Source of the DNA: Planctomycetota bacterium
GTDB taxonomy: Bacteria; Planctomycetota; SZUA-567; H5-PLA8
Length of the DNA stretch: 64,000 bases
Direction: 5' to 3'
NCBI GenBank assembly: GCA_045863855.1
Contig: BTVV01000014.1
Span: forward strand, 17,690 to 81,689
Under the pieces are notes generated by a model that had not been told where the DNA came from, did not search any database, and saw nothing but the letters and a program-made list of their open reading frames with translations. Positions within the stretch are counted from its first letter, which is position 1; the number at the start of each line of letters is the position of its first letter. Positions 30,466 to 59,393 of the stretch are shown here, in pieces. The position numbers and the translations under genes were made by a program.

Positions 30466-30531
30466 CGCTTCGCCCGAATTATCGGACGTTTTTTGCAATT
30501 AATTCCAACTCTAGCAGCGAACGCTGAAAGA

Positions 30532-31781: not shown

Positions 31782-31838
31782 TTACGAAGCGTGCCCTGCG
31801 CCGGCGGGTCCGCGTACGGCAGTCGCGTTTTTGTTCAT
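31782..31838 (-). CDS. Putative leader peptide upstream of rsgA (MNKNATAVRGPAGAGHAS)
   Basis: Manual translation; GGAGG RBS upstream; stop codon lies in hairpin 31769-31786. Confidence 0.4.
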   Translation of the reverse strand: MNKNATAVRGPAGAGHAS

Positions 31839-31889
31839 AATTTGGACCCTCCGGAGTTGGCCTTCGCTCATGCGAAGGAAGTGCGGGAA

Positions 31890-32855: not shown

Positions 32856-32866
32856 GGGGCGGCTCC

Positions 32867-33799
32867 TTAGAATGCGACTTGGTTTTTGCCCTTTAACTCG
32901 AGCATGCGGCGCGCGTCATCTGGGCGCGCAATTTCGAGCGAAAGCGAGTTCAGAATGCCGCGTATCTTGCGCACCTGGTCGGCGTTGGAGCGCGCCAGTT
33001 CGCCAGGACCGAGGTAGAGGCTGTCTTCGAGGCCCACGCGCACGTGGCTGCCGCGCAGCGCTCCGGCGGTGGCGAGAGGCATCTGATGCCGCCCCGCGCC
33101 AAGGACCGACCAGTGTAAGGCGTTACCGAACAGGCGCGTGGCGGTCTGCGCCATGAAGTTCAGGCATTCCATTTCAGGCCCGATGCCGCCCAAAATTCCA
33201 AAAATGGTTTGGATGAACAGAGGCGGACGGACGAGTTTTCGATCCAGAAAATGAGCTAAATTATAGAGGTGTCCCGCATCGTAACATTCGAACTCGAATT
33301 TCGTACCGCAGCCTTCACCGAGGTCTTTCAGGATCCGTTCGATGTCGGCAAAGGTGTTCTTGAAGATGAAGTCCTTGCTGCCGGAGAGGTACCCTTGCTC
33401 CCAATCGTGCTTCCACTCCCGAGGCTTTTCGAGCATCGGGTAGAGCCCGAAGTTCATCGAGCCCATATTCAGCGAACACATTTCGGGCTTCGCGCGCAAC
33501 GCCGCTTGCAAGCGGTCGGTGACGGTCATGTTCTGCCCGCCGCCGGTGGTGATGTTGATGACGGCGTCGGTGGCGCGCTTGATCTCGGGAAGGAAGGCCA
33601 AGAAGGCGTCCGGATCGGGGGAGGGGCGGCCATCGAGCGGGTCGCGCGCGTGGAGGTGGAGAATGGAGGCTCCGGCCTCGGCGGCGGCGATGGCTTCGGA
33701 CGCGATCCGCTCGGCGGTGACCGGCAGGTGCGGGGACATGCTGGGTGTATGGACGCTGCCGGTGATGGCGCAGGTGACGATGACGGGGCGGGGGGGCAT
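32867..33799 (-). CDS. Beta-keto acid cleavage enzyme (3-keto-5-aminohexanoate cleavage / DUF849 family)
   Basis: IVTCAITGSVHTPSMSPHLP, LHLHARD, SLNMGSMNF, FEFECYD, HVRVGLED. Confidence 0.95.
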   Translation of the reverse strand: MPPRPVIVTCAITGSVHTPSMSPHLPVTAERIASEAIAAAEAGASILHLHARDPLDGRPSPDPDAFLAFLPEIKRATDAVINITTGGGQNMTVTDRLQAALRAKPEMCSLNMGSMNFGLYPMLEKPREWKHDWEQGYLSGSKDFIFKNTFADIERILKDLGEGCGTKFEFECYDAGHLYNLAHFLDRKLVRPPLFIQTIFGILGGIGPEMECLNFMAQTATRLFGNALHWSVLGAGRHQMPLATAGALRGSHVRVGLEDSLYLGPGELARSNADQVRKIRGILNSLSLEIARPDDARRMLELKGKNQVAF

Positions 33800-33813
33800 G
33801 GCCGGCCTCCTGG

Positions 33814-33858
33814 GTTTCCCTACAAGAAACACTGTATCTTGAAAAGAAACGATGTCAA
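33814..33858 (-). promoter_or_regulatory. Sigma70 promoter with two tandem palindromic operators
   Basis: TTGACA (33858-33853)-16 nt-TACAGT (33836-33831); GTTTC-N7-GAAAC (33814-33830) and GTATC-N7-GAAAC (33834-33850), 20 bp apart. Confidence 0.7.
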
Positions 33859-33898
33859 GGGACCGGCTGCTCGAATCTTTACGCTTCGCCTGCAAGCA

Positions 33899-34489
33899 TC
33901 AGCGTTTTTTGGAACGTTTGGGCTTGGCGCCGGCCGGTTCGTCCTGCACGAAAAAGTCGAGGTAGCGGACGGTCTTCGAACCTAGGGCGCGGGCGGTATG
34001 CGGGAGGCGCGGGTTGAAGTAGAGCGAATCGCCGGGCTCGAGCACCATCGTGTCGGCCTCGATGGTGAATTCCATGCGCCCTTCGAGCATGTAGACGAAT
34101 TCCTCGCCGCCGTGCTGGAAGGTGCCGGGCGGGTCGGTGGGCTTCATGGTGAGCAGAAAGGGTTCCATGGTTTTACCGGGCATGGCGAGGGCCAGCGCTT
34201 CGTAGGCGTATCCGAACTGCGACCCGTCGCGGGTGATCCGTTCACCCTGGCCTTTACGGGTGAGGACGTAGTTCGGCCGGTCGTTCGATTCGCTGAAGAA
34301 TTCGGCCAGCGGCACCTGCAGCGCGTCGCCGATGCGCAGCACCGTGGAAATGGGCGGCGAGATCAGCCCGTTTTCGATCTTCGAAAGCGTACTCTTGGTG
34401 AGGCCCGCGCGTTCGGCGGCCTCGGCGAGGCTGGAGCCTTTTTTCTGGCGCCATTTGCGGATGTTCGCGCCGACGGTTTTCTCGTCCAT
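33899..34489 (-). CDS. XRE-family HTH + cupin transcriptional regulator (PuuR-like)
   Basis: VGANIRKWR...LTKSTLSKIENG HTH; MEPF, HGGEEFVYMLEG, LEPGDSLYF...PH cupin. Confidence 0.95.
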   Translation of the reverse strand: MDEKTVGANIRKWRQKKGSSLAEAAERAGLTKSTLSKIENGLISPPISTVLRIGDALQVPLAEFFSESNDRPNYVLTRKGQGERITRDGSQFGYAYEALALAMPGKTMEPFLLTMKPTDPPGTFQHGGEEFVYMLEGRMEFTIEADTMVLEPGDSLYFNPRLPHTARALGSKTVRYLDFFVQDEPAGAKPKRSKKR

Positions 34490-34540
34490 GCGCCCCAGTA
34501 TACGTCGGACCGCGGCGCTTGCCCGCGCCGGAAACGAAAG

Positions 34541-35197
34541 CTACCGCGCGGCCAGAATTTCCCGCGCCGCGCGTACGACGCGCCGGCGCAGTGCGTAGCC
34601 GCCGATCATCCCCAGCGCGCCGAAAAGCCCGAGCGGCACGCTCCAGTCCAGGAGGCGTCCGCCCACAAATCCGGGCCAGTTACTGCCGAGATGGATGGCC
34701 AAGGCTAAGGCCATGCAGGCCGGCGAGACGGTGGTGATCCAGCCTGCCGCGATCAGCGTGCTGCGGGCGAGCATGCTCGTGCGCCCCAGCAATTCGGCAT
34801 GCACCAATCCGAGTACGGCTCCGTAGAAGATCCAGGCGACGATCAATGGAGCGAGCCAGATCGATACTTCCCAAACGATGCCCACGCCGGGCGTGGCGAC
34901 CATGATCCCAAACGCCGAGCCCAAGGCGATGACGATGACAAGCCACTCGGCGAGCGAACATTGAAGCCGCCGAAACAATAGGTGCCCGAAGTACATGCCC
35001 AAACCGGCGGCGACGGCCACGTTGGCGGCGCTGCCGACGATTTGCAGCCAAGGGGTGAGGATAAACAGGTTGGCGGCGGTGAAGACAAGGGCCAGCGAAA
35101 CGGCCCAGCGGAGCATGCCTATATCGAAGCCCGCGCGTTTTGCGCGGAGCGAGCGGTTCGTGAGCGGGACGGTCAAGGCCGCGGCTTGCTCGCTCAT
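34541..35197 (-). CDS. Integral membrane hypothetical protein
   Basis: Six to seven hydrophobic segments; overlaps the upstream gene stop. Confidence 0.7.
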   Translation of the reverse strand: MSEQAAALTVPLTNRSLRAKRAGFDIGMLRWAVSLALVFTAANLFILTPWLQIVGSAANVAVAAGLGMYFGHLLFRRLQCSLAEWLVIVIALGSAFGIMVATPGVGIVWEVSIWLAPLIVAWIFYGAVLGLVHAELLGRTSMLARSTLIAAGWITTVSPACMALALAIHLGSNWPGFVGGRLLDWSVPLGLFGALGMIGGYALRRRVVRAAREILAAR

Positions 35198-36702
35198 TCG
35201 CGCAGTTCCTGGGCGGGCGGCTGTTCGGGTTGGGCGGGCGGCAGGCGGAAAACGGGGTCGTCGGCCGGGGCAATAGAGCTGTTGAGCGTGGGCTTGCCCG
35301 ACATCTTCAGCTTTTGAATCGCAGCCTCGGGAATGTGCTCGTTGCTCCAGTGGTTGTAGCCGCCGTCGTCGTGTCCGTCGGCTCCCACGCCGTAGATGCG
35401 CAACAAGCCCGGATGGAGCGGGGGCTCTTCTGGCGCATTGGGAAATTGCCGCACGAAGCCCAGCGGGTCGGAACGACAGCGCAGCGGCATTCCGTTGATC
35501 GTATCCGTGGGTACACGCTCGAGATACTGGGGCGCCAGGTCCTCGATCCGTTCGGGATCGCGCCCGTGCTCTATGCGGTATTCGAGCAGCGCCAGCGCCG
35601 TGTCGGCGGCAAGGGCCTGATCGGCGGAACGAATGTAATTGTCGGCAAAGCGTTCGATGACCGGAATCAGCAACCGAGTGAGCGCGGTGGGGCCGTTCGA
35701 TTGTTCGTTAAGGAGTCGGTCCACGGTTCCGGGCTCGATACGCTTGCCGGCTTGGAGCTTCGCAAGCATGAAGCTGTAGATATTCTCCATCGCTTGGCGT
35801 TCGGATCCATACCAGACGGACCAAACCCCTCCGGCGCGGGGTACGGGAATACCCAGGCCCGCGGCCGCAGGACTTATATTCATTGAAAACATGCCGTCGA
35901 ATGTATACATGCCGAACCGGGATTCGCCGTCCAGCAAACGCGCCGCGCGTTCCAGGGGCTGGCGCTTTAAAAAGTTGGCCGCACGGTAGGCGCGCACGTC
36001 TTCGAGTTGACCGGGCGTATGACGATCCACGATCTGCTGCAAGGTTTGGTCGGCGATGCCGTCCATGGCCACGGCCACCAAGCCGTTGATCAGGATCGGA
36101 TCGGTTTCGGCGAAGCGCGCGAGCCGGTAAATGGCTTTCAGCCGTTTCGCCGCGGCTTTGTGGTCACCGGCTCTGGCATGCCAAAGGGCGTCGAGGGCGA
36201 GAATCCGCGCCGCGCGCCGAAGTTGCGCGAGATGCGGAAGCAGGATCCCGAAACCCTTTGAGTAGTCCAAATTCCAGTGGCTGCGTTCCAGCTCGGCCGC
36301 GCTCAGGAGGTCCAGGAGAGACGTTTGAAGAGCCGCGAACTCCGAGGCCACGTTGGGATCGTCCCACATCTCGGGGAGGTAATGTCCGAGTCTGCTTTCG
36401 ATGTTTTCGGTGGCGCCGGCCGCATAAACAGGAAAAGCCGCAAAGGCCTTATTCAAAGTGAGCGCGGCATTGTGTTCATCAGCCAACGGCGGCGGCGCTA
36501 ATTCGTGTAGACGTTTTTTGCTTTCCGCGTAATTCGCCTGCGGATCGCCGGCGTCTACGCGCATGATGACCAGAGCCAGCCCGACCGCCAGGCCCAGCGC
36601 CAGCGGAAGTTGCCACAGTACGCGGTGACCGGGGCAGAGGTACCAGGCCGCCAAGGCCGCGCGGTCGAGTCTGCCGGATGAAGCAGGCGATTCGGTCTGC
36701 AT
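35194..36702 (-). CDS. Membrane-anchored helical hypothetical protein with pseudopilin-like C-terminus
   Basis: TM helix, NAA motif, LLPHLAQLRRAARIL, PILINGLVAVA, LALLEYRIEHGRDPERIEDLAPQYL, IYGVGADGHDDGG. Confidence 0.75.
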   Translation of the reverse strand: MQTESPASSGRLDRAALAAWYLCPGHRVLWQLPLALGLAVGLALVIMRVDAGDPQANYAESKKRLHELAPPPLADEHNAALTLNKAFAAFPVYAAGATENIESRLGHYLPEMWDDPNVASEFAALQTSLLDLLSAAELERSHWNLDYSKGFGILLPHLAQLRRAARILALDALWHARAGDHKAAAKRLKAIYRLARFAETDPILINGLVAVAMDGIADQTLQQIVDRHTPGQLEDVRAYRAANFLKRQPLERAARLLDGESRFGMYTFDGMFSMNISPAAAGLGIPVPRAGGVWSVWYGSERQAMENIYSFMLAKLQAGKRIEPGTVDRLLNEQSNGPTALTRLLIPVIERFADNYIRSADQALAADTALALLEYRIEHGRDPERIEDLAPQYLERVPTDTINGMPLRCRSDPLGFVRQFPNAPEEPPLHPGLLRIYGVGADGHDDGGYNHWSNEHIPEAAIQKLKMSGKPTLNSSIAPADDPVFRLPPAQPEQPPAQELRE

Positions 36703-36841
36703 CTTCCTATCTTACTTCATCGGTGCTTATCCTTACAGGCGCACTCGTGCGCGTTGACGATGGCCGGTCGTTGGCCTAATCTGCTCCCTCTTTATTGGGG
36801 AGGCGGTGCGGATCCCCGCGAATCGGAAGGGAGCGGTTTCG

Positions 36842-38815
36842 ATGGCGTCGGTGCTTGAAGCCCTGGAAGCTCTGGAGGCGGAGGCGCGCAGCGCATTCGC
36901 CGCGGTGAAGTCGGCCGAGGACCTGGAGAAGGTCCGCATCGAGTACTTGGGCAAGAAAGGCAAGTTGAAGGACGCCAAAGCGCAGGTGGGCCAGGCCGCG
37001 GCCGAAGACCGGCCCAAAGTCGGCGCGCGCGCGAAGGAACTCGAGGCCGCCGTGCAAGTCTGCTTCGAAGAGGCGCAAGCGCGGCTGGTTTCCGGCGGCC
37101 CGGCGCTGAGCGGCGTCGAAGCGCTGCGCGACGAGCGGATCCAGAAGCTGAAGAAGTACGAAGCCGTACACGGCGCAGGCAGCGCGTGGGGCGCGCGCTT
37201 CGCCAACGTCTCGGCCATCGAGGATCTGCGCAAGAAGTTTCCAGCGCTGGCCGAGGGCCAGCCACCGGACAGTAACCAGACCCTGGGCACAGGCCGGATC
37301 GCCGCACGCGTGATGCTGCGCCGCGACCAGTCCAAGAAGCTGATCTTCCTGACGGTGGCCGACCAGTCGGGCGAGTTGCAGGTGGCGCTCTGGAACAAGA
37401 AGCTGCCCGAGGCGGCGCTGGACCTCCTGCGCGAATCGCTCGACCTGTGGGACCTCGTCGGTGTGGAAGGCGAGTTGGCTTACACGCAGCGCGGCGAACC
37501 CACGCTGTGGGCGACGGAGATCAAGCTGCTGACGAAGTGCCTCGCGCCGCCGCCCGAGAAGCACCACGGTCTGACGGACAAAGAGACGCGCTACCGGCAT
37601 CGGCATCTGGATCTGATCAGCAATCCGGATTCGCGCAAAGCGTTCATCACGCGCGCGAAGCTTGTCAGCGGCGTACGGCGCTTCCTCGACGATCAGGGCT
37701 TCCTGGAGATGGAGACGCCGGTCTTGCAAACGATCCCCGGCGGCGCGGCGGCGCGCCCGTTCAAGACGCACCTGAACGCGCTGGGCATCGACATGTTCAT
37801 GCGCATCGCGACCGAGATCCCGCTCAAGAAGCTGCTCGTCGGCGGGCTCGATAAGGTCTACGAACTGGGGCGGATTTTCCGCAACGAGGGTGTGGACTAC
37901 AGCCACAATCCCGAATTCACGACAGTCGAATTGTATCAAGCCTACGCCGATCTGCGGGACATGATGGCGCTCGTCGAGAACCTCGCCAGCCACCTCGCGC
38001 GGGAACTGACCGGCGGCACGACGGTCACGTTCCGCGGCAAGCCGGTGAAGCTCGGCGCGCCCTGGCCGCGGCTGGACTATTGCGAACTGCTTGAAAAGCA
38101 CGCGGGCGTGAAGGCGACCGACGAAGCGGGCCTGGACCGCAAGATTCGCGAGGCCGGCGAGAACCCGGAAGGGCTCTCGATGGTGGACAAGATCGATGCG
38201 GTCTTCGGCACGTACGCCGAACCGCACCTGACCGACGCGTGCTTCGTGATCAACCAGCCCGTCGAGATGAGCCCGCTGTGCAAGGCGCATCCGGAGGATG
38301 CGGCGAAGGCGCACCGTTTCGAGGCGTTTGCGGCGAGCATGGAGATCGCGAACGCGTACAGCGAGCTGAACGATCCGTTGGAGCAGCGCAAGCGGCTGGC
38401 GGCGCAGATGCGCGAGACTTGGGCGAAGTTTATGCGCGAAGTGCTGGATGAGCCGGGCGCTTCTATCGGAGCCGATTTGAAGATCGGGATCGAAGGCCTC
38501 GTGCAGCGGGTCGAGCATTCGGCCGACTGGCAACCCACCGGCGACTCCGATGCGAACCGCCTGCTGCGGTCGATCGAGGCTCAGGTCAAGACCTGGAAAC
38601 GGAAGGACTATTTTTTCGAACGCATGCAGCGCCTGGAAGATCCGTCGCTGTTGATCGACGAAGACTTCCTCCACGCGCTCGAGCACGGCATGCCGCCCGC
38701 CGGCGGGATGGGCATCGGGATCGACCGCGTCTGCATGCTCATCACGGGCTGCGATTCGATCCGCGACGTGATTCTGTTCCCGCTGATGCGGCCGGAGAAG
38801 GGGAGTGGGCAGTAA
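36842..38815 (+). CDS. lysS: Class II lysyl-tRNA synthetase with N-terminal PheRS-alpha-like arm and C-terminal insertion
   Basis: OB anticodon domain, PEKHHGLTDKETRYRHRHLDL, ETPVL..GGAAARPF, RIFRNEG..HNPEFT, EIANAYSELND, GMPPAGGMGIGIDR...IRDVILFP. Confidence 0.97.
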   Translation: MASVLEALEALEAEARSAFAAVKSAEDLEKVRIEYLGKKGKLKDAKAQVGQAAAEDRPKVGARAKELEAAVQVCFEEAQARLVSGGPALSGVEALRDERIQKLKKYEAVHGAGSAWGARFANVSAIEDLRKKFPALAEGQPPDSNQTLGTGRIAARVMLRRDQSKKLIFLTVADQSGELQVALWNKKLPEAALDLLRESLDLWDLVGVEGELAYTQRGEPTLWATEIKLLTKCLAPPPEKHHGLTDKETRYRHRHLDLISNPDSRKAFITRAKLVSGVRRFLDDQGFLEMETPVLQTIPGGAAARPFKTHLNALGIDMFMRIATEIPLKKLLVGGLDKVYELGRIFRNEGVDYSHNPEFTTVELYQAYADLRDMMALVENLASHLARELTGGTTVTFRGKPVKLGAPWPRLDYCELLEKHAGVKATDEAGLDRKIREAGENPEGLSMVDKIDAVFGTYAEPHLTDACFVINQPVEMSPLCKAHPEDAAKAHRFEAFAASMEIANAYSELNDPLEQRKRLAAQMRETWAKFMREVLDEPGASIGADLKIGIEGLVQRVEHSADWQPTGDSDANRLLRSIEAQVKTWKRKDYFFERMQRLEDPSLLIDEDFLHALEHGMPPAGGMGIGIDRVCMLITGCDSIRDVILFPLMRPEKGSGQ

Positions 38816-38819
38816 GGCG

Positions 38820-39608
38820 CTACAGCGTCCTTATATGAAACCCGCCGTCCACGTCGAAGACGGCGCCGGTGCTGAAGGGGAAGCTGCCGCGCAGGATGGC
38901 GCCGACGGCCAGCCCGATATCTTCCGGCGTGCCCCAGCGTTTGATCGGGGTCAGGCCGCCTTCGATAAGCTTGTCGTACTTCTCTTTGACGCCGCTGGTC
39001 ATGTCGGTCGCGATCACGCCGGGGCGGATTTCGTAAGCCAGGATGTTCTCTTCGGCCAGGCGCGCGGCGAAGAGCGCCGTGACCATACCGAGGCCCGCCT
39101 TGGCAATGCAGTATTCGCCGCGGTTGACCGAGGCCGTATACACGCTGATCGAAGTGATGTTGACGATGTAGCCGCGGTCGAGCTTGCCTTCCTTGCGGAG
39201 TTGGATCATGCGCCGCGCGGCTTGCTGAGTCAGGAAAAACGGGCCTTTCAGGTTCACGTCGAGGACGCGGTCGAAGCTCTCTTCGCCCATTTCGAGCAAG
39301 TCCGCGCGCTTCTGCGGCGCGACGCCCGCATTGTTGACCAACGCGGTGAGTGTCCCAAAACGTTCGACGGCGAAGTCGAGCATGTATTTGCGCTGCGCGG
39401 TCTGGCTCAGGTCGGCCTGCACGGCGGCGGCTTGCCCGCCGGCCTGTTCGATCAGGCCCACGGCTTCCTTGGCCGCGTCGGCGTTGGAGGCGTAGTTGAT
39501 CACCACTTTCCAGCCTTGGCGGCCGAGTTCCACCGCGATCCCGCGCCCGATGCCGCGGCTGCCGCCTGTCACCAGCGCCACGCCCGTCTGTTTCGCCGTC
39601 TCGTTCAT
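38820..39608 (-). CDS. SDR oxidoreductase (3-ketoacyl-ACP reductase-like)
   Basis: [17 protein letters not shown] catalytic YxxxK, PG, VDGG. Confidence 0.95.
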
Positions 39609-48225: not shown

Positions 48226-49857
48226 ATGCTCTGCCGACAACTCTACGAAGTGCAGGAGAAGTACGGGTACGTGCCCGAGAAGGAGATGCGGGAGCTGGCC
48301 CGCCGCAACGGGATCCCGGTTTATGAGGTTTTCGGTGTCGCGACGTTCTACCCGGGCTACCGCACGACGCCGCCGCCGAAGGCGAGCATCAACGTGTGCC
48401 GGGACTTCCCGTGCCATTTGCGCGGCGCTCCGAAGCTGCGCCAGAAGATCGAGGACTTGGTTCGCGAAAGCGGCGTACCGGGCATCGAACTGGGCGGGGT
48501 GAGCTGCCTGGGGCAGTGCGACGGCAGTCCGGCGGTGCAGATCAACGACGCGTCGTACGCGCGAAAAAGCGAAGACGAGATTCTGAAGCTGGTTCAGGAA
48601 GCGATCGCGGGAAAGAAGATCGCGGAGCAGCATTTCGGCCCGATGGCGAAGGGTCCGTTCAAGACCAACCCTTACGCGGAAGGCGAGAAGTACGGCGCGC
48701 TGAAGGCGCTGGCGAAGTCGAAGGACTTCGAGGGCGTGATCGCACAGTTGAAGGCCGCGAACCTGAAGGGGATGGGCGGCGCGGGCTTCCCCACGGGGGT
48801 GAAGTGGGAAGGCGTGCGCAAGTGCCAGAACGACGAGAAGTACGTGGTCTGCAACGCGGACGAAGCGGAAGTCGCGACGTTCAAGGACCGCGAGATCATG
48901 AAGTCGCTGCCGCACCTGGTGGTTGAAGGCATGGCCATCGCGGCGCTGGTGACGGGCGCCTCGCAGGGCTACATCTACATCCGCCACGAATACCACGACC
49001 AGATTCACAGCATGGAAGAGGAGATCAAGCGCGCGCGCGAAGCGGGCATCCTGGGGAAGGATTGCTGCGGGAGCGGGCAGAAGTACGACATGGAAGTCTT
49101 CGTCAGCCCCGGGGGGTACGTGCAGGGCGAAGAGAGCGCGCTGCTGGAGGCGATCGAAGGCAAGCGCGGCCAGCCGCGGGTGAAGCCTCCGTTCCCGGTC
49201 TTCGTGGGCCTGTGGGGCAAACCCACAGTGATCAACAACGTCGAGACGCTGGCGTACGTGCCCGCAATCCTGGTCAAGGGCGTGGACTGGTTCAAAGGCC
49301 AGGGCAAGAACGGAAGCGAAGGGTTGAAGTGGATCGGCGTGAGCGGGCACGTGAAGAATCCCGGCGTCTTCGAAGTGCCGATGGGGACGACGTACCGCGA
49401 AGCGATCTACGAACTGGCCGGCGGAATCCTGGGCGACAAGAAGCTGAAGGGCTTCGCACCGTCGGGTCCGTCGGGCGGCTTCCTGCCGGCCTCGATGGTC
49501 GACCTCTCGATGGACTGGAAGAAAATGGCCGACGCGGGAAGCATGCTGGGTTCGGGCGCGATCGTGGCCATCGCCGAAGGGACAGACCTGGTCGAGTTGG
49601 CGCTGAATGCGACGCAGTTTTACCGCAACGAGTCGTGCGGGAAGTGCGTGCCGTGCCGCGTGGGCAGCCAAAAGCTGGTGGACCTGCTGCACCGGATGGC
49701 CAAGAAGGAAGGGAAGCGCGAGGACTTCGAAACGATCCAGCGCCTGAGCGACACGATGCTGATGACGAGCATCTGCGGGCTGGGCCAGGTGGTCTCCGCG
49801 CCGATCGATTCGGTGCTGAAGCACTTTAAGGGCGAAGTGGACGCCAAGATCAAGTAG
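48226..49857 (+). CDS. Fused NuoE-like [2Fe-2S] + NuoF-like FMN/NADH-binding [4Fe-4S] diaphorase subunit
   Basis: VATFY, CRDFPC...CLGQC; GMGGAGFPTGVKW, CNADE, YVQGEESALLEAIEG..GQPR, NNVET, CGKCVPCR...SICGLG. Start 48226 has a GAGGA RBS. Confidence 0.93.
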   Translation: MLCRQLYEVQEKYGYVPEKEMRELARRNGIPVYEVFGVATFYPGYRTTPPPKASINVCRDFPCHLRGAPKLRQKIEDLVRESGVPGIELGGVSCLGQCDGSPAVQINDASYARKSEDEILKLVQEAIAGKKIAEQHFGPMAKGPFKTNPYAEGEKYGALKALAKSKDFEGVIAQLKAANLKGMGGAGFPTGVKWEGVRKCQNDEKYVVCNADEAEVATFKDREIMKSLPHLVVEGMAIAALVTGASQGYIYIRHEYHDQIHSMEEEIKRAREAGILGKDCCGSGQKYDMEVFVSPGGYVQGEESALLEAIEGKRGQPRVKPPFPVFVGLWGKPTVINNVETLAYVPAILVKGVDWFKGQGKNGSEGLKWIGVSGHVKNPGVFEVPMGTTYREAIYELAGGILGDKKLKGFAPSGPSGGFLPASMVDLSMDWKKMADAGSMLGSGAIVAIAEGTDLVELALNATQFYRNESCGKCVPCRVGSQKLVDLLHRMAKKEGKREDFETIQRLSDTMLMTSICGLGQVVSAPIDSVLKHFKGEVDAKIK

Positions 49858-49917
49858 GCGTTCGGATCCATTCGTACGGCAGGCGCCGCGAACCGTTTCG
49901 ACCGAGGAATCCGACCG

Positions 49918-52161
49918 ATGAATGCCCCATCCGCCACTGTGACGCTGACGATCGACGGGAAAGACGTGACGGTGCCGAAAGGCACCACGATCTGGGAAGC
50001 CGCGCAGGGCAACGGGATCGACGTCCCTGTGCTGTGCCACAAGCCTCCGCTGAATCCCGTGGGCGTCTGCCGTGTCTGCGTCGTGGACGTGGGCGCTCGC
50101 GTCTTCGCGGCGTCGTGCGTGCGCGAAGCCGAGAACGGTATGAAGGTCACGACCAGTCACGAGCGGCTGGAGCGCAACCGCAAAACGCTGGTCGAAATGC
50201 TGCTGGCCGACCATCCGGCGCCCTGCGAGAAGCACAAGCAGACACATACCTGCGAACTCGAGAAGCTGGGCGAACGCTATGGGATCCTGCAGCCGCTGCC
50301 GGCTGGCGCGCCGGCGCCGGAGCCGCGCTTTTGGAGCCCTACGTTCATGTCCCGCGGCGTGGCGCCGGACGACGCTCATTTCGCCGAAGACCAGAGCCCG
50401 CGGCGCTTGCAGAAGGGGACCGACTTCTCGAACCCCTCCATCGCCATCGACCATCGCGCGTGCATTCTGTGCGACCGCTGCGTGCGCGCCTGCACCGAAG
50501 TGAAGCACAACAACGTGATCGGGCGGATGGGCAAGGGCTACAACGCGAGCATCTCGTTCGACGTGAACCTGCCGATGGGCGGTTCGAGCTGCGTGAACTG
50601 CGGCGAGTGCATGATCTCGTGCCCGACCGGCGCGATCACCAGCCGCCAGGAAGCCGGCGTGCAGCTCGAGACAGGCGACAAGCTGACCGTCGACGAGATG
50701 CTGCAGATCCCGATCTTCCAGGGGATCAGTTCGGAATTCCTGAAACGCAACGAAGGCTCGGTGGTGCGCCGTAAGTTCAAGAAGGGCGACGTGATCTGCC
50801 GCGAAGGCGAGTTCGGCAGCACGGCGTTTTACCTGCTTAAGGGCACCGCGGACGTGTTCCTGACTACGCCGATGGCGCACGTGAAGAGCGACAAGAAGCA
50901 GTCGGCCGGGTTTTTCAGCAAGTTCAAGCATCTGCTGGCCGGCAAGAAGGAAGATCCGCGCGAAGAAGGGGAGCGCAAGTTCATCCCCATCGACGCTCCG
51001 GTGGACCTCTCGCTGGACAACCCGATCGCGAAGCTGAACGAGGGCGACCTGTTTGGCGAAATGACCTGTCTGACGTTCCAGCCGCGTTCGGCGACGGTGC
51101 GCGCGGCCGAGGACTGCGAGATGCTGGAGATGCTGCGCAGCGTCTTGCAGGTACTGCAGAAGAACAAGAAGTTCCGCGACCAGCTCGACGCGAACTACCG
51201 CGAGCGCGCGCTGGGGCAACATCTGCGCAGCGTACCGATCTTTTCGGCGATCGACGATCCGAAGTTCATCGACCAGCTCAAGGCGCGCGTGGAACTGCTG
51301 CACTACGATCCGGGCCAGCCGATTATCCGGGAAGGGGAGGAGGGCGACGCCTTCTACCTGATCCGGGTCGGCTGCGTGAAGGTGAGCAAGAGCCTTCCGG
51401 GCGGCGAGATGGTGCTTTCGTACCTCTCGCGCGGCGAATATTTCGGCGAAATGGCGCTGCTGGACCGCAGTCCGCGTATGGCGTCGGTCATCGCTCTGGA
51501 CCATGTGGAAGTGGTGCGCATCCGCAAGACCGACTTCGACTTCATGCTCGGCTGGTTCGAGGACCTGCGGCCGAAGCTGGAGGCCGAGGCGAAGAAGCGC
51601 AAGGAAATGACCGAACGGATGACGCGCATGGCGCCGTCCACGAGCCTGGACGATTTCCTGGCTCAGGGGCTGATGCACGCGCAGAGTCTGCTGCTGCTGG
51701 ACCTGGAGCGCTGTGTGCGCTGCGACGAATGCGTGCGCGCGTGCAGCGATGCCCACGACGGCGTGACGCGGCTGGTGCGCGAAGGCCTGCGCTTCGACAA
51801 GTACCTCGTCGCGACCTCGTGCCGAAGTTGCCTGGACCCGCTGTGCATGGTTGGCTGTCCGGTGGGCTCGATCCGGCGCAAGGAATCGCTGGAAGTCATC
51901 ATCGAAGACTGGTGCATCGGCTGCGGGCTATGCGCGCAGCAGTGCCCCTACGGCAACATCAACATGCACGAGTTCGAGTCGAACAAGGCCGACCCGTCGC
52001 AGCCGGGCGTGAAGAAGGCCACGGTGGACCGCAAAGCGACGCTGTGCGATCTATGCACAGACCTGAAAGAGCCGAGTTGCGTGTACGCCTGCCCGCACGA
52101 CGCGGCGCATCGCGTGAACGCGCGCGAATTCTTCACGGATCTGACGATCAAGCAGGGCTGA
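49918..52161 (+). CDS. NuoG/HydA-type Fe-S N-terminus + two cNMP-binding domains + 4x[4Fe-4S] ferredoxin
   Basis: LCH..CRVC..SC [2Fe-2S]; HPAPCEKH..C; CILCDRCVRAC and CVNCGECMISCP; FGEMTCLTFQPRSATV and FGEMALLDRSPRMASV; four further Cys motifs at the C-terminus. Confidence 0.92.
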   Translation: MNAPSATVTLTIDGKDVTVPKGTTIWEAAQGNGIDVPVLCHKPPLNPVGVCRVCVVDVGARVFAASCVREAENGMKVTTSHERLERNRKTLVEMLLADHPAPCEKHKQTHTCELEKLGERYGILQPLPAGAPAPEPRFWSPTFMSRGVAPDDAHFAEDQSPRRLQKGTDFSNPSIAIDHRACILCDRCVRACTEVKHNNVIGRMGKGYNASISFDVNLPMGGSSCVNCGECMISCPTGAITSRQEAGVQLETGDKLTVDEMLQIPIFQGISSEFLKRNEGSVVRRKFKKGDVICREGEFGSTAFYLLKGTADVFLTTPMAHVKSDKKQSAGFFSKFKHLLAGKKEDPREEGERKFIPIDAPVDLSLDNPIAKLNEGDLFGEMTCLTFQPRSATVRAAEDCEMLEMLRSVLQVLQKNKKFRDQLDANYRERALGQHLRSVPIFSAIDDPKFIDQLKARVELLHYDPGQPIIREGEEGDAFYLIRVGCVKVSKSLPGGEMVLSYLSRGEYFGEMALLDRSPRMASVIALDHVEVVRIRKTDFDFMLGWFEDLRPKLEAEAKKRKEMTERMTRMAPSTSLDDFLAQGLMHAQSLLLLDLERCVRCDECVRACSDAHDGVTRLVREGLRFDKYLVATSCRSCLDPLCMVGCPVGSIRRKESLEVIIEDWCIGCGLCAQQCPYGNINMHEFESNKADPSQPGVKKATVDRKATLCDLCTDLKEPSCVYACPHDAAHRVNAREFFTDLTIKQG

Positions 52162-52239
52162 TTTCCGGCGCGGACCGGTTGGTCTTCCGCGGCCTCGATG
52201 CGAACCATCGAGGCCGTTTCATTTCACGGAGGGTTCGGC

Positions 52240-53067: not shown

Positions 53068-54723
53068 TTAGAAGTCCACCTGGAAGCGCATCATGAAGGT
53101 CTGCATCTGGCCGTTGGTGCGGAGGTTATCCGCGGCCGCTCCGTCGAGGACCACGTCGTTGGGATCGCCGTCTTCCACATCGGCAAAGACGTAGTTAAAC
53201 ATGAAGCGCGCGTTGGGATTCAGATACCAGTTGACGCCGAAAGTGAGCGTCTGGAGCAGTCCGCCGCGGATGCGTGAACTGGTGTCCAGGTCACTGGCTT
53301 CGGGCCCGCGGCTGTCGAGGTCCAGCCAACCGTAGCGTAAGGCGACTTCCCAGGCGCCCAGCCCGATCTCGGTATCGCTGGCCCAGAAATTCCGCTTGGG
53401 CTTCACGCGTCCGAAGAGACCGCTGTCTTTGCTGTAGGGGCGGCTTTCCCCGGTGAGGAAGTAACTGCCCATCACGTAATAGCCTTGGAAGAAGGGGTCT
53501 TCGGCGTTATCGATGCCGATGTCAGGAGGCGTGCCGGCGTCGTCGGTGAAGTTACCGATGCCGCGTTGATCCAGGCGCGCCATGTATTCGGCCTGGAACG
53601 ACCAACTGTCGTAGACCAAGGCCATTTCCGCTCCGAAGACATGGCTGTCGTCGGCGGTGAAAGTTCCGGTATCGACGAAGCGTTCGACGGTGGCGACGCC
53701 GGGCCGTGCGCGGTGGCGCAAGGTGCGGGTCGGGTGCATCTGGTAGCTGTAGTTTAGACCCAAGTGAATCAGCTTTTTACCGCTGTCCTCGTACCACGGC
53801 AGGCCGGTGACGCGGCCGCCGAAGCGCCAGTTGGCTTGCCCGTCGCTGGGCCGGTAGTCGTCGGTCCCGTCGCCTTCGATGATGTCGGCGTCGTCGTCGG
53901 TGCTGTTCTCGCCGTCCACGTTGCCAAGGCGGAAGGCGCCGAGCGCCCAGGTGATCCGGTCGTCGAGGTGGCTGTTTTCCAGGCGCAGGCCGGGGTTGCG
54001 ACCGGCCGAAAAGACTTCGTTGACCGGGTCGCGTTCCATAAACGTGATGTATTTGCTGCTGGTTTGAATCTCGAGGCCCCAGGGTTCGAACTGGTTGCCG
54101 AAGGTGGCCGTGCCGATGCCGGGCAGGTTCGTCAGGCCCAGGTAGACGTCCTTAAACTCGGAAGCGCCGTCTCCATCTTCGGCGATATCATACACGGCCT
54201 TGTAGACGAAATTCTTGTAGATGGTTCCGCCAAGCTCGATGCGCGCGCGGCGGAAGTTGGTCATTACTTCCTGTTCGCCGATGCTGTCCGAGATGGTGTC
54301 GTCTTCCCACGGATTGATGTAGTCGAACATGATGCGGCCGCCGACCATGAGCTGAAACTCTTTGTTGGCGGTGGAGAAGCGCAGGCCTTCCTTCCAGAAG
54401 GCTTTGAAGGTGTTGTCGTCCTTGCTGTCGGCCAGCGGGGCGAAGTAGGCGCGCTTTTCGAGTAGTTCCTCGACCGTTTTGTCGCTCTTGGACTGGGTCT
54501 GCTCGAGCGCCCGGATGCGCCGTTCCTGCTCGACGATATGCTGGTCTTTTTCGGCGATCTGCTGCTGATTGGCCTGAAGCTGCTGCTGGGTAAGCTGGAG
54601 CAGTGCTTCGAGCTTCCGTACGCGCTCTTCGAGCGGAACTTCTTCCTCGGCTCGAATCGCGGATCCGAACGAAGCCATCAGGCTCGCGGCGATAAGCAAC
54701 CATCGAATCGGGCTGACGTGCAT
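53068..54723 (-). CDS. Phosphate-selective porin OprO/OprP family with N-terminal coiled coil
   Basis: Signal peptide, GGRIMFD, FRRARI, TSSKYITFMER, FQAEY, SYFLTGE, GAWEVALRY, GVNWYLNP, terminal RFQVDF. Confidence 0.92.
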   Translation of the reverse strand: MHVSPIRWLLIAASLMASFGSAIRAEEEVPLEERVRKLEALLQLTQQQLQANQQQIAEKDQHIVEQERRIRALEQTQSKSDKTVEELLEKRAYFAPLADSKDDNTFKAFWKEGLRFSTANKEFQLMVGGRIMFDYINPWEDDTISDSIGEQEVMTNFRRARIELGGTIYKNFVYKAVYDIAEDGDGASEFKDVYLGLTNLPGIGTATFGNQFEPWGLEIQTSSKYITFMERDPVNEVFSAGRNPGLRLENSHLDDRITWALGAFRLGNVDGENSTDDDADIIEGDGTDDYRPSDGQANWRFGGRVTGLPWYEDSGKKLIHLGLNYSYQMHPTRTLRHRARPGVATVERFVDTGTFTADDSHVFGAEMALVYDSWSFQAEYMARLDQRGIGNFTDDAGTPPDIGIDNAEDPFFQGYYVMGSYFLTGESRPYSKDSGLFGRVKPKRNFWASDTEIGLGAWEVALRYGWLDLDSRGPEASDLDTSSRIRGGLLQTLTFGVNWYLNPNARFMFNYVFADVEDGDPNDVVLDGAAADNLRTNGQMQTFMMRFQVDF

Positions 54724-55053
54724 ACTCAAATCTCCTCCCAAGGGCGTGCGAATGCCCTTGCCGGTCCCTGCTCATGCGCGTAAGTGCAGGGGGCTTTTAT
54801 ATACGAACCGCCCGGTGCGGGGTAGCCCGAAATGCCAATCCTGAGTGAGGAGATTTTAAGAAGGGGTGAAGGCATAAGTTTCTTGGCCTGACCCGGGAAA
54901 TCGGCCATAATGCAGAGGCTGTTTCAAAGGTTACCGAAGAAAGACGCGAGGACGCCCCATGAGTTAGGCGCCCGGCGGGTCATGCGTATCGCCTGGAGCG
55001 CTCATGTTTTCGGTTTTGCAGACGCCAGAATTCAGGAAGAGGCAATCGGCCCC

Positions 55054-57048
55054 ATGTCTGACGCTCGATTGAAGGAAGATCCCGCCGGAGAAGATCTCGC
55101 GCACGAGCGTGTGAATCCCAGCGCGGAGCGCCCGTTGGGGGCGATCTTGGATGCGCGCCTGACACGGCGGGACGTGTTGACGAGCTTGGTGCTTTCGCCG
55201 GTGCTGGCCACGTTTGCCGAACTGGTTCGCGGCGGCTTGGCCCATGCCGAACCGGCGGCTGGCGGCAGCACGCTGGCTTTCGAGGAACTGGAAGGCCGGC
55301 TGGAGAAGTTTCACCGGGTGGCGCGCGGGTACGACGCGAAGGTGTTACTGAGCTGGGGGCAGGGGGTGGTTTCGGGCGCGCCTTCGTTCGACCCATACGC
55401 TCAAACGCCTGACGCTCAAGAGAAACAGTTCGGCTACAACAACGACTTCATCGCTTTCATGCCGTTGCCGCGCGGTTCGGATAATTCCGATCACGGGCTG
55501 CTGTGCGTGAACCACGAATACGCCAGCCCCGAATTGATGTTCCCGCGCGATCCGCCGTCCGAGCCGCAGCCGAGTCCGGAAGAGCGGTTGCTTGAGCGCG
55601 AACGCGACCGCTCGAAGGTCGATGTCATGCTTGCCGCGCACGGGCATTCGGTCGTGGAGATCAAGAAGACCGGAGATGTGTGGCAGACGGTGCCTAACGG
55701 TACGTACAACCGCCGCATTACCACGCGTTCGACGAAGTGCCGGCTCTCCGGTCCCGCCGCCGGGCACGACCGGATGAAGACCTTCGAAGATCCGGACGGC
55801 CTTTGGGTGAAGGGTACGCTGAACAACTGTTCGGGCGGCGTGACGCCCTGGGGTACGGTGGTGATTGCCGAAGAGAATTTCGACTTCTATTTCAGCGGCA
55901 AGCCTTCCGGTTCTGAATTGGCGAACCACCTGCGTTACGGGATCAAAGGCAAGCCGCGCTGGAACTTCGGGGATTTCTTCGAACGATTCGACGTCGAGCG
56001 CGAAACGAGCGAGCCCAACCGCTTCGGCTGGCTGGTGGAATACGATCCGTACGATCCGGAGTCGGTGCCGGTCAAGCGCACGGCCTTGGGGCGCTGGAAT
56101 CACGAAGGCGCCGCGATGGTCCTCAACAAGGACGGCCGGGTGGTCGTCTACAGCGGGGACGACCGCGTTTACGAGTATATTTACAAATTCGTCACCAAGA
56201 ACGCCTTCGACGCCAAGGACCTCGCGAAGAACAAGGATCTGCTGGACGAGGGGACGCTGTATGCCGCGCGCTTCGAAGACGACGGCACGCTGAACTGGCG
56301 CCCGCTGGTTTTCGGGCAGGGGCGGCTGACACCGGCGTTCGGTTTCCATTCGCAGGCGGATGTTGTGATCGAAGCGCGCCGCGCGGCCGACTTGATGGGT
56401 GCAACCCCGTTGGATCGCCCAGAAGACGTGGATATCAATCCCGTCACCGGCCGCGTCTATGCCTCGCTGACGAACAACGAAAGCCGTGACATCGACCGCC
56501 TGGACGCCGTGAATCCGCGCTACGACAACCGCTTCGGGCACATCGTCGAGATGATTCCTCCGGGCGAAGGAAAAGACGCCGATCATGCGGCGGATCGCTT
56601 TAAGTGGGAGATCTTCATCCTGGCCGGCAATCCGCGCGACAAGAAGCACCGCGCCAAGTACCACCCGGATCTCTCGAAGCACGGCTGGTTCGCCTGCCCC
56701 GATAATCTGGCGTTCGATAAGCAAGGCCGTATCTGGATCGCGACCGATCAGGGTAAGCGCCAAAACGAGACGAAGATTGGGGACGGGCTCTGGGTCTGCG
56801 ACACCGTCGGCCCCGGCCGTGCGCTGACGAGGCATTTTTTCTCGGGCCCCGTCGGAGCGGAGATCTGCGGGCCGTGCCTGACGCCCGATAACACGACGAT
56901 CTTCGTGGCCGTGCAGCATCCGGGCGAAGAGAAGGGCTCCAGCTTCGAAGATCCAGCGACGCGCTGGCCGGACTTCAAGAACGGGATGCCGCCGCGCCCG
57001 TCGGTGGTGGCGATCGTCAAGAAGGGCGGGGGCGTGCTGGGCAGCTAA
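55054..57048 (+). CDS. phoX: PhoX-family alkaline phosphatase (DUF839), Tat-exported
   Basis: LTRRDVL Tat motif, QFGYNND, CVNHEY, GTLNNCSGGVTPWGT..EEN, EPNRFGW, GAT.LDRPED, CPDN, AEICG, VQHPGE. Confidence 0.95.
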   Translation: MSDARLKEDPAGEDLAHERVNPSAERPLGAILDARLTRRDVLTSLVLSPVLATFAELVRGGLAHAEPAAGGSTLAFEELEGRLEKFHRVARGYDAKVLLSWGQGVVSGAPSFDPYAQTPDAQEKQFGYNNDFIAFMPLPRGSDNSDHGLLCVNHEYASPELMFPRDPPSEPQPSPEERLLERERDRSKVDVMLAAHGHSVVEIKKTGDVWQTVPNGTYNRRITTRSTKCRLSGPAAGHDRMKTFEDPDGLWVKGTLNNCSGGVTPWGTVVIAEENFDFYFSGKPSGSELANHLRYGIKGKPRWNFGDFFERFDVERETSEPNRFGWLVEYDPYDPESVPVKRTALGRWNHEGAAMVLNKDGRVVVYSGDDRVYEYIYKFVTKNAFDAKDLAKNKDLLDEGTLYAARFEDDGTLNWRPLVFGQGRLTPAFGFHSQADVVIEARRAADLMGATPLDRPEDVDINPVTGRVYASLTNNESRDIDRLDAVNPRYDNRFGHIVEMIPPGEGKDADHAADRFKWEIFILAGNPRDKKHRAKYHPDLSKHGWFACPDNLAFDKQGRIWIATDQGKRQNETKIGDGLWVCDTVGPGRALTRHFFSGPVGAEICGPCLTPDNTTIFVAVQHPGEEKGSSFEDPATRWPDFKNGMPPRPSVVAIVKKGGGVLGS

Positions 57049-57122
57049 GCGCAAGCCGCTCGGTGTCGGGCCGCCGCGTTCGGACCCATTGGATTCGGTG
57101 GCGGCCGCTCGTTTTCGCTATC

Positions 57123-59393
57123 TCAGAACAGCACTCGAATCTGGTCATTGGCCACGATGATGCGCTGCGAGAGCAGCTTGATGATGTAGCGATGGAACTC
57201 CATCGCCGCCTGCGGCTCGGTTTTCTCCAGATCCAGAAGCGTTTTATAACGGAAGCGCTGCACTCGGCAGGGCGAGTCGGCTACGCATTCGGCGCTGCGC
57301 GGCAGGTGCGAATAGAGCGCCATTTCGCCCACCACCGAGCCGGGCCCGAAGGTTCGCAGTCGCACCACACGGTCGTCGAGCTTCAAGCGGACGGTCACTT
57401 CTCCGCGTTCGATGAAGAACATGTCGTCGCCCGGATCGCCCTGCTTGAAGAGGAGTTCGTCCTCCTGAAGCGCCTGTGGTTCCATGCGGGCGAGGATGAT
57501 ATCGAGCGAGGACTCGGTGAAGTGCGGGGCGAGCAGTCCGCGCATCACGTCGTCCATGGACATGAAGGTCATCGTTCCGGCCGCATCGATGACGCCGCGC
57601 GTACTGGTGGGGACCGCGTCGCCTTGGGTGGACGGGTCGGCCAGGATTTTTTCTTCGAAGTACTCAAGCCCGCGGTCCATGTCCGCGAATTGCATGATCC
57701 TGGGGTTAGGCAACAGGCCGCCTTGTTTCAGCAACGCGTCCATATCGGGTTTGACGCCGCACAGCGCCAACTCGGCGCCGTTACGTTCGCAAGCTTTCTC
57801 GAGTTTGCACAGGCTGATCACCGAGGAGACGTCGAGCCCCTGAACGAGGCGGAAGTCGAGCATCAGGTAGCGCAGCTTTTCGGTTTCGATTCGCATGCGC
57901 GCTTCGGCCAGGATGCGGCTGGCCAGCGCGAAGAAAACGTACCCTTGGAGGCTGAAGACGCGCGCCTGGCGGCCGTGCTTCTTAAGTGCTCCGGCGATTT
58001 CGAGGGCGCGTTCCTTATTCGACGCCCGGTCGGCCACCGTGAAATTATAGCGGATGCAGTTCGTCTGGCTGTAGCTGTAGACGAAGTACACCAGCGCTAC
58101 CATCAGCCCGAAGACGACGCCCACCACCAGCCCCTGCACGGCAACCAGGACCAGGATTCCCATCAGCAGCGCGAATTCGAAGTGCGAGAGCTGCCGGTAC
58201 GATTTCCACATCCAGGCATGGAGCATGTCCATGCCGAGGAAGAGCAGCAGTCCTACGAGCACCGGTTTGGGCAGGTATTCGGCGTAGGGCAATAGAAAGA
58301 GCGTGGCGATGAGGATCAGTACCGCGCACCAGACGCCGGCTTTGCGCGTGACCGCGCCGGCTTTGTGATGCAACAGGCTGCGCGTAGTGGAGACGCAACC
58401 GACGATGCCGCCGGCCAGCCCGGCCAGCACGTTGGCCAATCCATTCACCTGCATCTCACGGTCGAAATCGACATCCTGTTCGGTGGCCACGTCCATGCCC
58501 ATCGAGGTGAACATGATCGAGAAGACGACCACCATGGCGAGCGCCAGGAGGTTCTGCCACTGCTTCATCAAAAGGTCGGTGCGCACCCCGTCCAGCGTGG
58601 GCAAGTGAACCCCGGATTCGACGAGGCGCGGGAGCTTAAAGAGCAGTCCCTGCTCGCGGGCGGCATCGGGCGTCATGCCGAACGATTGGAGGCTGACGAA
58701 AAAGACCACGCTGCCCAGGATGAGCCCGATGGGCATGCCCAGCGCCGGGTGGATGAATCGTTTGGCCAACGGCACGCCCAGCAAAACGGCCGCGGCGCTG
58801 AGCAAGGCCGGCCCGGCGACCTCCGGCGGATGGCGGAGCATCTGCAACGTGGGTGGTTCCTTGAGCAAGACTTCCAGGCCGCCGCGAATGAGCAGAAAGC
58901 CGGTGCTGGCCATGAAGCCCGCCACGACCGAATAAGGCACGAAGCTGAGCAACCGTCCGCAGCGCCATGCGCCCAGCAAATAGAGAAAGAGCCCCGTCAA
59001 AATAGCGCTCACCGAGAGCATCATGAGCACCGTGATCAGGATTTGTTCGGGGGGCACTTCGGCGGCGACGAGGTCGCGGCTGAGCGAAGCGGCCATCAGG
59101 GCCACGATGGCGGTGGGCTTGGGCGTCGGACCGGCGATCGAAAACGGGCTGCTGCTGCCCAGCGCCACCACCAGGCACAGAATGCAGCTCGCCAGGAGGA
59201 TCGTATGGAAGCCCGTGGCCAGATGCGGCGCCAAGGCCGGCACACCGAAGATCAATACGCCGTAGCTGACCGTCGAGGCGAAGCCGACGAAGCCCGAGAG
59301 GGTGCCTGCCGCTAGATCGCGTCCCCATAGGGCTGCGGGAGTCGGTGGGCCTGAGCTGGTGAGTGTAGGCGCTTTGGAATCCGTCTGGGACAT
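57123..59393 (-). CDS. SulP-family anion transporter with STAS and cNMP-binding domains
   Basis: Many TM helices, PYSVVAGF, DFDREM..NGLAN, LQGYVFFA..DFRLVQGLDVS (STAS), VGEMALYSHLPRSA (cNMP). Confidence 0.93.
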   Translation of the reverse strand: MSQTDSKAPTLTSSGPPTPAALWGRDLAAGTLSGFVGFASTVSYGVLIFGVPALAPHLATGFHTILLASCILCLVVALGSSSPFSIAGPTPKPTAIVALMAASLSRDLVAAEVPPEQILITVLMMLSVSAILTGLFLYLLGAWRCGRLLSFVPYSVVAGFMASTGFLLIRGGLEVLLKEPPTLQMLRHPPEVAGPALLSAAAVLLGVPLAKRFIHPALGMPIGLILGSVVFFVSLQSFGMTPDAAREQGLLFKLPRLVESGVHLPTLDGVRTDLLMKQWQNLLALAMVVVFSIMFTSMGMDVATEQDVDFDREMQVNGLANVLAGLAGGIVGCVSTTRSLLHHKAGAVTRKAGVWCAVLILIATLFLLPYAEYLPKPVLVGLLLFLGMDMLHAWMWKSYRQLSHFEFALLMGILVLVAVQGLVVGVVFGLMVALVYFVYSYSQTNCIRYNFTVADRASNKERALEIAGALKKHGRQARVFSLQGYVFFALASRILAEARMRIETEKLRYLMLDFRLVQGLDVSSVISLCKLEKACERNGAELALCGVKPDMDALLKQGGLLPNPRIMQFADMDRGLEYFEEKILADPSTQGDAVPTSTRGVIDAAGTMTFMSMDDVMRGLLAPHFTESSLDIILARMEPQALQEDELLFKQGDPGDDMFFIERGEVTVRLKLDDRVVRLRTFGPGSVVGEMALYSHLPRSAECVADSPCRVQRFRYKTLLDLEKTEPQAAMEFHRYIIKLLSQRIIVANDQIRVLF

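Follow-up and report, generated by a model that had tools for sequence, protein, structure and literature searches.

A NuoEF gene paired with an Fe-S/cyclic-nucleotide-domain gene in a planctomycete: candidate NAD(H) input of a PCC4/ptd-type electron conduit

The closest described systems to the gene pair reported here are the ptd and PCC4 clusters. In ptdABCDEFG, PtdE is a protein with cyclic nucleoside monophosphate (cNMP) domains and 4Fe-4S clusters, and the accessible part of the preprint calls its function completely unknown (bioRxiv 10.1101/2023.11.21.568154); PCC4 was modelled, in the sections available, as a donor-to-quinone uptake system (PMC5566968). As far as these texts describe subgroup II, a gene for a cNMP and 4Fe-4S protein precedes that of a ferric-reductase-like membrane protein carrying two WX3HX13H motifs, a decaheme cytochrome follows, and a tetraheme cytochrome and a probable porin are present in the cluster. 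The same composition was found for the family of two adjacent open reading frames (ORFs) at 48226-52161 in a 64,000-nucleotide stretch of a Planctomycetota genome (GCA_045863855.1, contig BTVV01000014.1; the whole stretch is called the window). The first encodes a NuoE-NuoF fusion (P0001), and the second an iron-sulfur (Fe-S) protein with two tandem cNMP domains (P0002). Judged from gene order and homology, P0001 and P0002 probably form the cytoplasmic module through which NAD(H) connects to a trans-envelope electron conduit of the PCC4/ptd type; that this input is also gated by a cyclic nucleotide is given slightly less than an even chance. The features of the pair are as follows.

48226..49857, + strand: P0001, NuoE-NuoF fusion of 543 aa identified by Pfam, with predicted [2Fe-2S], flavin mononucleotide (FMN)/NAD(H) site and [4Fe-4S]; MeFDH1-beta type, predicted to be non-bifurcating
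49918..52161, + strand: P0002, FeS-cNMP-cNMP-FeS protein of 747 aa, 60 nt after P0001; long form of the PtdE-like adaptor
49933..50160, + strand: [2Fe-2S] domain (PF13510, Fer2_4), A4/N1b-like, with C40, C51, C54 and C67 invariant in the family alignment
50212..50253, + strand: degenerate His-ligated (N5/A5) site, H-x3-C-x8-C with no middle Cys, from the alignment; site wholly absent in MeFDH1 alpha
50461..50622, + strand: 2x[4Fe-4S] ferredoxin domain, A3/A2-like (C182-C192, C225-C235), exit of the input module
50680..51213, + strand: cNMP domain A, cassette FGE...PRSA at 51052-51093, with a family-wide insert of ~50 residues at about 50872-51021
51214..51597, + strand: cNMP domain B, cassette FGE...PRMA at 51442-51483, with Thr replacing Met in 104/120 relatives
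51712..52092, + strand: DmsB/HydN-like 4x[4Fe-4S] domain, 16 cysteines (C599-C725), the most conserved part of P0002
52189..52217, + strand: terminator-like hairpin directly past the P0002 gene; as a class these hairpins were not above chance (2 sites observed, 4.8 expected in shuffles)

A genome scan gave at least 730 matching stretches, 718 of them confirmed, and partners were counted by ORF clustering across 78 loci among the matches listed, mostly from Acidobacteriota metagenome-assembled genomes. NuoEF was encoded upstream of the P0002 homolog in 76/78 loci, a four-histidine membrane protein of ~305 aa directly downstream of it in 72/78, and a decaheme cytochrome next after the membrane protein in 66/78; the order NuoEF, P0002 homolog, membrane protein and decaheme was observed in all 64 loci holding the four genes. 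Further partners were a divergent tetraheme gene (61/78), a 9-10-heme LVIVD protein (39/78), a conserved 600-740 aa protein that is a probable beta-barrel (38/78, and also contig C7 of this genome), an HbpS-like protein (34/78), and a flavoprotein, presumably soluble-transhydrogenase-like (15/78). For the barrel candidate, Pfam named an N-terminal CarboxypepD domain only, and the copy at L004 ends in Phe. Ten CxxCH motifs were present in 57/66 decahemes and four in 61/61 tetrahemes. The first-pass annotation had seen no hydrogenase, formate dehydrogenase (FDH, gene product Fdh) or membrane Nuo subunit beside the pair, and a scan of other window ORFs (18 + 12) gave none; the relatives of the pair nevertheless have these operon partners.

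The membrane protein carries two WX3HX13H motifs in 63/72 cases and SGXXG in 69/72, most of the misses being truncated ORFs, and for PCC4 the same motifs of the inner-membrane protein are interpreted as two b hemes in the available text (PMC5566968). The membrane protein of this genome, encoded on contig C7, has two WX3HX13H and SGXXG, and its model shows five long helices at a predicted local distance difference test (pLDDT) value of 88. No Foldseek match was obtained at E 0.001 or better, and VIA-align returned generic helical bundles with Z of at most 9.4; because the fold searches gave nothing specific, the cytochrome b identity is based on the motifs and a weak Pfam match (E 0.0067). In complex prediction, the P0002 C-terminal domain with this membrane protein scored 0.58 and the best of three controls 0.01, with at least 86% of contacts shared between runs and a partner pLDDT of at least 79. 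The mark applied is reached by 116/157 solved and 2/215 mismatched pairs, and 18 of the solved and both mismatched pairs lie at or below 0.60, so the result lends weak support to the predicted docking of the C-terminal 4x[4Fe-4S] domain on the membrane protein.

Compared with the published descriptions, the cluster as read from its sequences resembles PCC4/ptd, yet is without the pentaheme and PtdC, two defining parts. The ptd input is a separate flavin adenine dinucleotide (FAD) oxidoreductase, PtdC, whereas here NuoEF serves together with an Fdh-type Fe-S module, the latter being fused to the PtdE core; the pentaheme (PtdA) is absent and the 9-10-heme LVIVD protein stands in its place; the cassette arginines of the cNMP domains, missing from the pentaheme-type loci examined, are kept here; and the operon is split in this genome, unlike in the ptd/PCC4 clusters. 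Neither NuoEF nor cNMP gating appears in the available ptd or PCC4 text, the comparison being with those texts. Profiles built from the family neighbours matched classical pentaheme-type loci (L175, L177, L178), and a TrxR-type flavoprotein was found in 5/11 classical loci (L170-L180). A profile of four PtdC-type flavoproteins gave only FHA/Fer2 parts, and not the FAD domain, in L001-L078, L107-L119, L150-L169 and this genome, with a best score of 55 bits versus at least 651 for true members. The PtdE-like core was fused to a TrxR-type flavoprotein in P0125 and to NuoEF in P0126 (one sequence each). Large decaheme and porin clusters with a 'ferredoxin-NADP reductase' have also been described, in the part of the source available (PMC13264449), and may overlap the NuoEF/PtdE family. 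The first-pass annotation knew of no characterised enzyme with this architecture; no paper on the P0002 architecture appeared among open-licence papers and bioRxiv, but the cNMP and Fe-S core has already been named PtdE, without a function in the portion of the preprint consulted.

The NuoE-NuoF fusion and the Fe-S protein beginning 60 nt later were verified as ORFs and by their Pfam domains. P0001 starts with ATG preceded by a GAGAGG site and contains NuoE (PF01257, aa 5-125) followed by NuoF (PF01512), SLBB and PF10589; a promoter scan at the locus gave no site on the coding strand. For P0002 aa 1-246 the best PDB match was the alpha subunit of the NAD-dependent tungsten formate dehydrogenase MeFDH1 (7vw6, 7e5z; E 9e-39), and 7e5z_B aligned with P0001 over aa 2-535, with G-(L/M)-GGAG common to both. 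The MeFDH1 relay runs W, A1, A2, A3, A4, B1, FMN with no A5, as given in the sections available (PMC10869683). Like this pair, MeFDH1 has a fused NuoE-NuoF beta subunit with G-L-GGAG, clusters A4, A3 and A2, and no A5/N5; it has A1 and a tungsten or molybdenum bis-pyranopterin guanine dinucleotide (W/Mo-bisPGD) domain where P0002 has instead the two cNMP domains and the 4x[4Fe-4S] domain. The pair is not a formate dehydrogenase, and no molybdopterin domain was found in P0002 or the scanned window ORFs. The family NuoF and six NuoEF proteins of another family formed one clade (support 99, FastTree), and for two of those six (L181, L182) an FdhF-type alpha gene was seen 4-6 kb away. In the simplest history suggested by these sequences, the input half is an MeFDH1-type FDH diaphorase from which A1 and the W/Mo domain disappeared and which became attached to the PtdE core, and this origin of the input half would be what is new relative to ptd/PCC4.

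All 72 NuoF rows of the family have G(L/M)GGAG in place of GRGGAG, and E303, which we take to be the residue favouring NADH, is retained in 71/72. A dead flavoprotein was ruled out, since MeFDH1 beta carries the same change. T218, K220 and Y298 of P0001 agree with the non-bifurcating pattern of PMC7311640, matched by motif and not in a joint alignment. The marks of bifurcating HydABC/Bfu enzymes given there (A/E and M at Tm232/234, F at Tm367, GGPSG, extra Fe-S domains) were not found in P0001, which reads SGPSG and is without extra clusters.

The complex I N-module (NuoEFG), HoxEFU and HydABC/Bfu belong to the same diaphorase superfamily as the pair, and a diaphorase of the NuoEFG/HydABC type had been proposed for it; the superfamily is right, but the closest solved module is that of MeFDH1. 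P0001 falls below the NCBIfam TIGR01959 NuoF cut-off (463.5 vs 558.65) and nearly reaches that of the PRK13596-type model (364.7 vs 389), the pair is below the NCBIfam cut-offs for NuoG and HoxU, and the complex I N-module traits (His-Cys3 N5 site, NuoG C-terminal domain, nuo operon) are missing from the pair and the window ORFs. The genome has its own NuoE/F/G set (C53) and its own NuoEF-Fdh (C191, C162), so a diaphorase serving Fdh or complex I was ruled out. A hydrogenase served in trans was likewise rejected, as no PF00374 or PF02906 match was obtained in a genome 93.9% complete, where absence is unproven. Full-length NuoEF-like matches in genomes with short forms, which lack the input module, were considered as trans inputs and set aside, the two viewed widely adjoining an Fdh alpha gene.

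In P0002, the [2Fe-2S] and 2x[4Fe-4S] start and the 4x[4Fe-4S] end noted in the first-pass annotation were confirmed by Pfam and the cysteine pattern. The His-type site also noted there is present only as a remnant, H99-x3-C103-x2-H106-x5-C112: the middle Cys of N5 is missing in all 119 covering rows of the 120 aligned (Q 96, H 22, E 1) and in the query, and a canonical N5 cluster is therefore not predicted.

A misassembled chimera, named earlier as a possible explanation, was ruled out by the homologs, the family-wide loci and an independent contig, indicating that the architecture is real. The 120 best database matches of P0002 examined were all at least 57% identical, 119 of them covering at least 98% of the query, and the nearest named homolog (84% identical) is labelled Planctomycetota. 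A contig from a separate study covers 49525-52162 gap-free at ~96% identity. RNA-library contigs from two studies of a ~96% identical strain span 48155/48160 to 52143/52162, while the DNA runs continue; this is a weak hint of a two-gene unit, short of proof of transcription, and the contig ends are likewise a weak hint for the hairpin. The spread is patchy, with matches at E 1e-100 in 25/401 Planctomycetota genomes, and in 15/301 genomes from the phylum to which an acidobacterial locus belongs, where just 4 are full length. Two records labelled Bordetella (L015, L061) hold the acidobacterial cluster and are probably mislabelled bins; L015 nests with Bryobacterales rows in the tree. One genome (G126) has two long-form copies (L161/L162), one clustered with NuoEF and the other alone.

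The two tandem cNMP domains (PF00027, 134.5 bits) carry FGEMTCLTFQPRSA and FGEMALLDRSPRMA, and the intact FGE...PR(S/M)A cassettes seen at first reading held up across the family. FGE and R-x-A of both cassettes are invariant in 120/120 near homologs while flanking residues vary, and in a wider set the Arg (R390 and R520 in P0002) is kept in 100/104 rows for domain A and 99/104 for domain B. The tandem folds like those of PKA-R and PKG (best Foldseek matches 5j3u, 5kbf, 4z07), which likewise have two adjacent cyclic-nucleotide-binding domains with FGE...R-x-A; unlike these, it sits between Fe-S domains and regulates no kinase, and unlike CRP, P0002 has no helix-turn-helix. The domain A cassette is R-S-A and that of domain B mostly R-T-A in the family, and since R-S-A is CRP-like and R-T-A PKG-like, the ligand may be cAMP or cGMP. 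Class III cyclases above 100 bits lie within 10 kb in 14/78 loci (a raw count), the Lys that marks ATP use is present in all 9 cyclases aligned, and this genome has 6 PF00211 matches. The insert of domain A gave no amphipathic helix among the 12 top-scoring windows.

From domains, motif conservation, gene order, co-occurrence and homology, a scheme of cofactors, direction, contacts, ligand and gating can be proposed. Electrons would pass from NADH through FMN, B1 [4Fe-4S], A4 [2Fe-2S], A3 and A2, in reverse of the MeFDH1 relay, then to the C-terminal 4x[4Fe-4S] domain, the two putative b-type hemes of the four-histidine membrane protein, the membrane-anchored decaheme c, and on to the tetraheme, the 9-10-heme LVIVD protein and the probable beta-barrel. 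With ~320 residues of tandem lying between A2 and the cluster that follows it in the chain, docking of the two Fe-S halves would require the tandem to loop out. Binding of cAMP or cGMP would re-orient the tandem in the manner of PKA-R/PKG and so switch docking of the Fe-S halves, or, alternatively, docking of P0002 to the membrane protein; a ligand-sensing hinge between two Fe-S chains is plausible on this sequence reading. The opposite direction, with an outside donor reducing NAD+ (or quinone) under cNMP control, is in keeping with the available PCC4 text, which models donor-to-quinone uptake (PMC5566968), and with the reduction of NAD+ by the same module in MeFDH1, but the flavoprotein fits the non-bifurcating pattern and the module has no energy-coupling element. 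As NAD+ reduction without energy coupling would need a very low-potential donor, inward flow is considered very unlikely.

In this genome the operon is split. Contig C7 holds the membrane protein (18929-19890), decaheme and tetraheme at 18877-23495, and HbpS-like, barrel and large multiheme genes at 30075-38981, including the LVIVD protein (G000:C7:34584-38981, G000 being this genome). The C7 decaheme has 10 CxxCH and the tetraheme three plus one CX3-4CH. The membrane gene is preceded by folC, with neither cNMP/Fe-S paralog adjoining it. In the relatives G001 and G002 a single contig carries the long gene and, ~720 kb away, the membrane gene, showing that the split is real, and we infer that the partners act in trans in this planctomycete. 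Of 41 related genomes, 10 have an intact cNMP2-FeS gene, and the membrane gene was found in these 10 and no others, although the genomes are kin and not independent. Between the two halves of the C7 multiheme cluster (L121:1786-5851) lies a pair that by eye is CcsA/CcsB-like (cytochrome c maturation system II). In both the C7 decaheme and the C7 tetraheme (L120:13937-17499), an Ala/Glu/Lys/Pro-rich linker leads into a terminal CxxC...CxxC zinc-ribbon-like tail, which is unusual for periplasmic proteins.

Contig C9 encodes a short paralog without the input module (L107:10222-11877; 551 aa, cNMP2-4xFeS), lying away from the membrane gene that it accompanies in relatives. Upstream of it are a large repeat-rich secreted protein, a Ser/Thr kinase-FGE-sulfatase gene and a gene that we take to be ShlB/FhaC-like. 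The short paralog that precedes the membrane gene in G001 (L119:9099-11215) is broken over two frames, as a pseudogene or an assembly error. L113:6085-9336 and L114:2407-5706 encode proteins of 1084-1100 aa with long EAEARA repeats, the cNMP tandem and a partial Fe-S domain; neither of the two genomes holding them gave a match to the membrane gene. In a quick tree, which left out L113 and L114 (degenerate), L116 (duplicate of L001), L119 (frameshifted) and 51/78 loci, the long and short copies of this planctomycete family formed sister clades (SH-like approximate likelihood ratio test, SH-aLRT, 94; 89 and 97 for the two). The long/short label changed 5 times overall, indicating an input module that is gained and lost around a constant cNMP2-FeS core.

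Several observations weigh against a gated conduit input, some of them specific to this lineage. The short paralog precedes the membrane gene in 6 genomes (L108-L112, L119), none of the 5 long-form loci examined in this lineage adjoins it, and close to its flavin the NuoF of P0001 shows changes particular to the lineage, SEPG to AEVA together with C300Q (2-3/72 rows). These, with the sister-clade tree and the genuine ~720 kb split, would suit a pair that has left the conduit in this lineage to become a soluble cNMP-regulated NADH:ferredoxin/acceptor oxidoreductase, leaving the membrane protein to the short paralog. Against such a departure, the positions conserved in the operon-linked C-terminal domain are better kept in the long copy (104/112 in the query, 97/112 in the short paralog), the relative G005 has the long copy and the membrane protein with no short copy found (88% complete), and in this genome neither paralog adjoins the membrane gene; we regard it as decidedly unlikely.

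The remaining points against concern the gating and the family at large. The P0002 model has a pLDDT of 59.5, below 50 in the Fe-S parts, with no cluster distances readable, and the cyclases near the loci are mostly one orthologous group in kin. Eight distant homologs, including those at the pentaheme-type ptd loci L175, L177 and L178, retain both cNMP folds with both cassette arginines gone, and canonical cNMP binding is thus not a requirement of the architecture. The conduit could accordingly be constitutive, with the tandem as a scaffold, dimerisation unit or tuner of assembly or stability, for which the conserved ~50-residue insert in domain A could serve packing; the invariance of FGE and R-x-A amid varying neighbours points instead to selection on ligand binding, and a constitutive conduit is judged unlikely. 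Short forms with no flavoprotein in the neighbourhood covered are common (L153-L160, L165-L168, L179-L180), and FHA or FHA-like domains replace the input in some (L166, E 3e-10; L108 and L119 weak). Together with one kinase fusion (P0124) and the Ser/Thr kinase gene ahead of the C9 paralog, this would agree with a redox sensor in which the tandem relays, through altered ligand affinity or partner binding, an NADH or periplasmic redox state sensed by the chain. P0002 has no output domain, however, and up to 7 Fe-S clusters and more than 20 hemes are far beyond the needs of sensing, which makes such a sensor hardly probable.

If the reading of the pair as a cNMP-gated conduit input is correct, the PCC4/ptd clusters would acquire both a control signal and a source of electrons, and a second messenger could prompt some Planctomycetota as well as soil Acidobacteriota to discharge NADH across the envelope. 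Bacterial cAMP steers respiration through transcription factors and enzyme modification; for direct allosteric switching of an electron wire by cAMP, no paper was found in the literature covered. A doubtful extension of the sequence reading is that cAMP, bound inside one Fe-S polypeptide, gates a quinone-independent path from NADH to the multihemes while NADH-fed and inputless adaptors compete for one membrane cytochrome; such competition would be a second control layer in this planctomycete. The apparent replacement of the FDH catalytic domain by a sensor-wire core clearly illustrates modular evolution, and the two-gene soluble module is the simplest piece of the system for study.

Elsewhere in this genome, contig C84 encodes a Tat-type DMSO reductase type II alpha subunit (L203:1929-5426; TIGR03479, 365 bits, below the cut-off) that presumably resembles periplasmic nitrite oxidoreductase alpha subunits. 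In the window, the gene pair is followed at 53071-59393 by genes for a phosphate-selective porin, a PhoX phosphatase and a SulP-STAS-cNMP transporter, which also lie near the P0002 ortholog in G001; the transporter gene is the third with a cNMP domain inside 5 kb.

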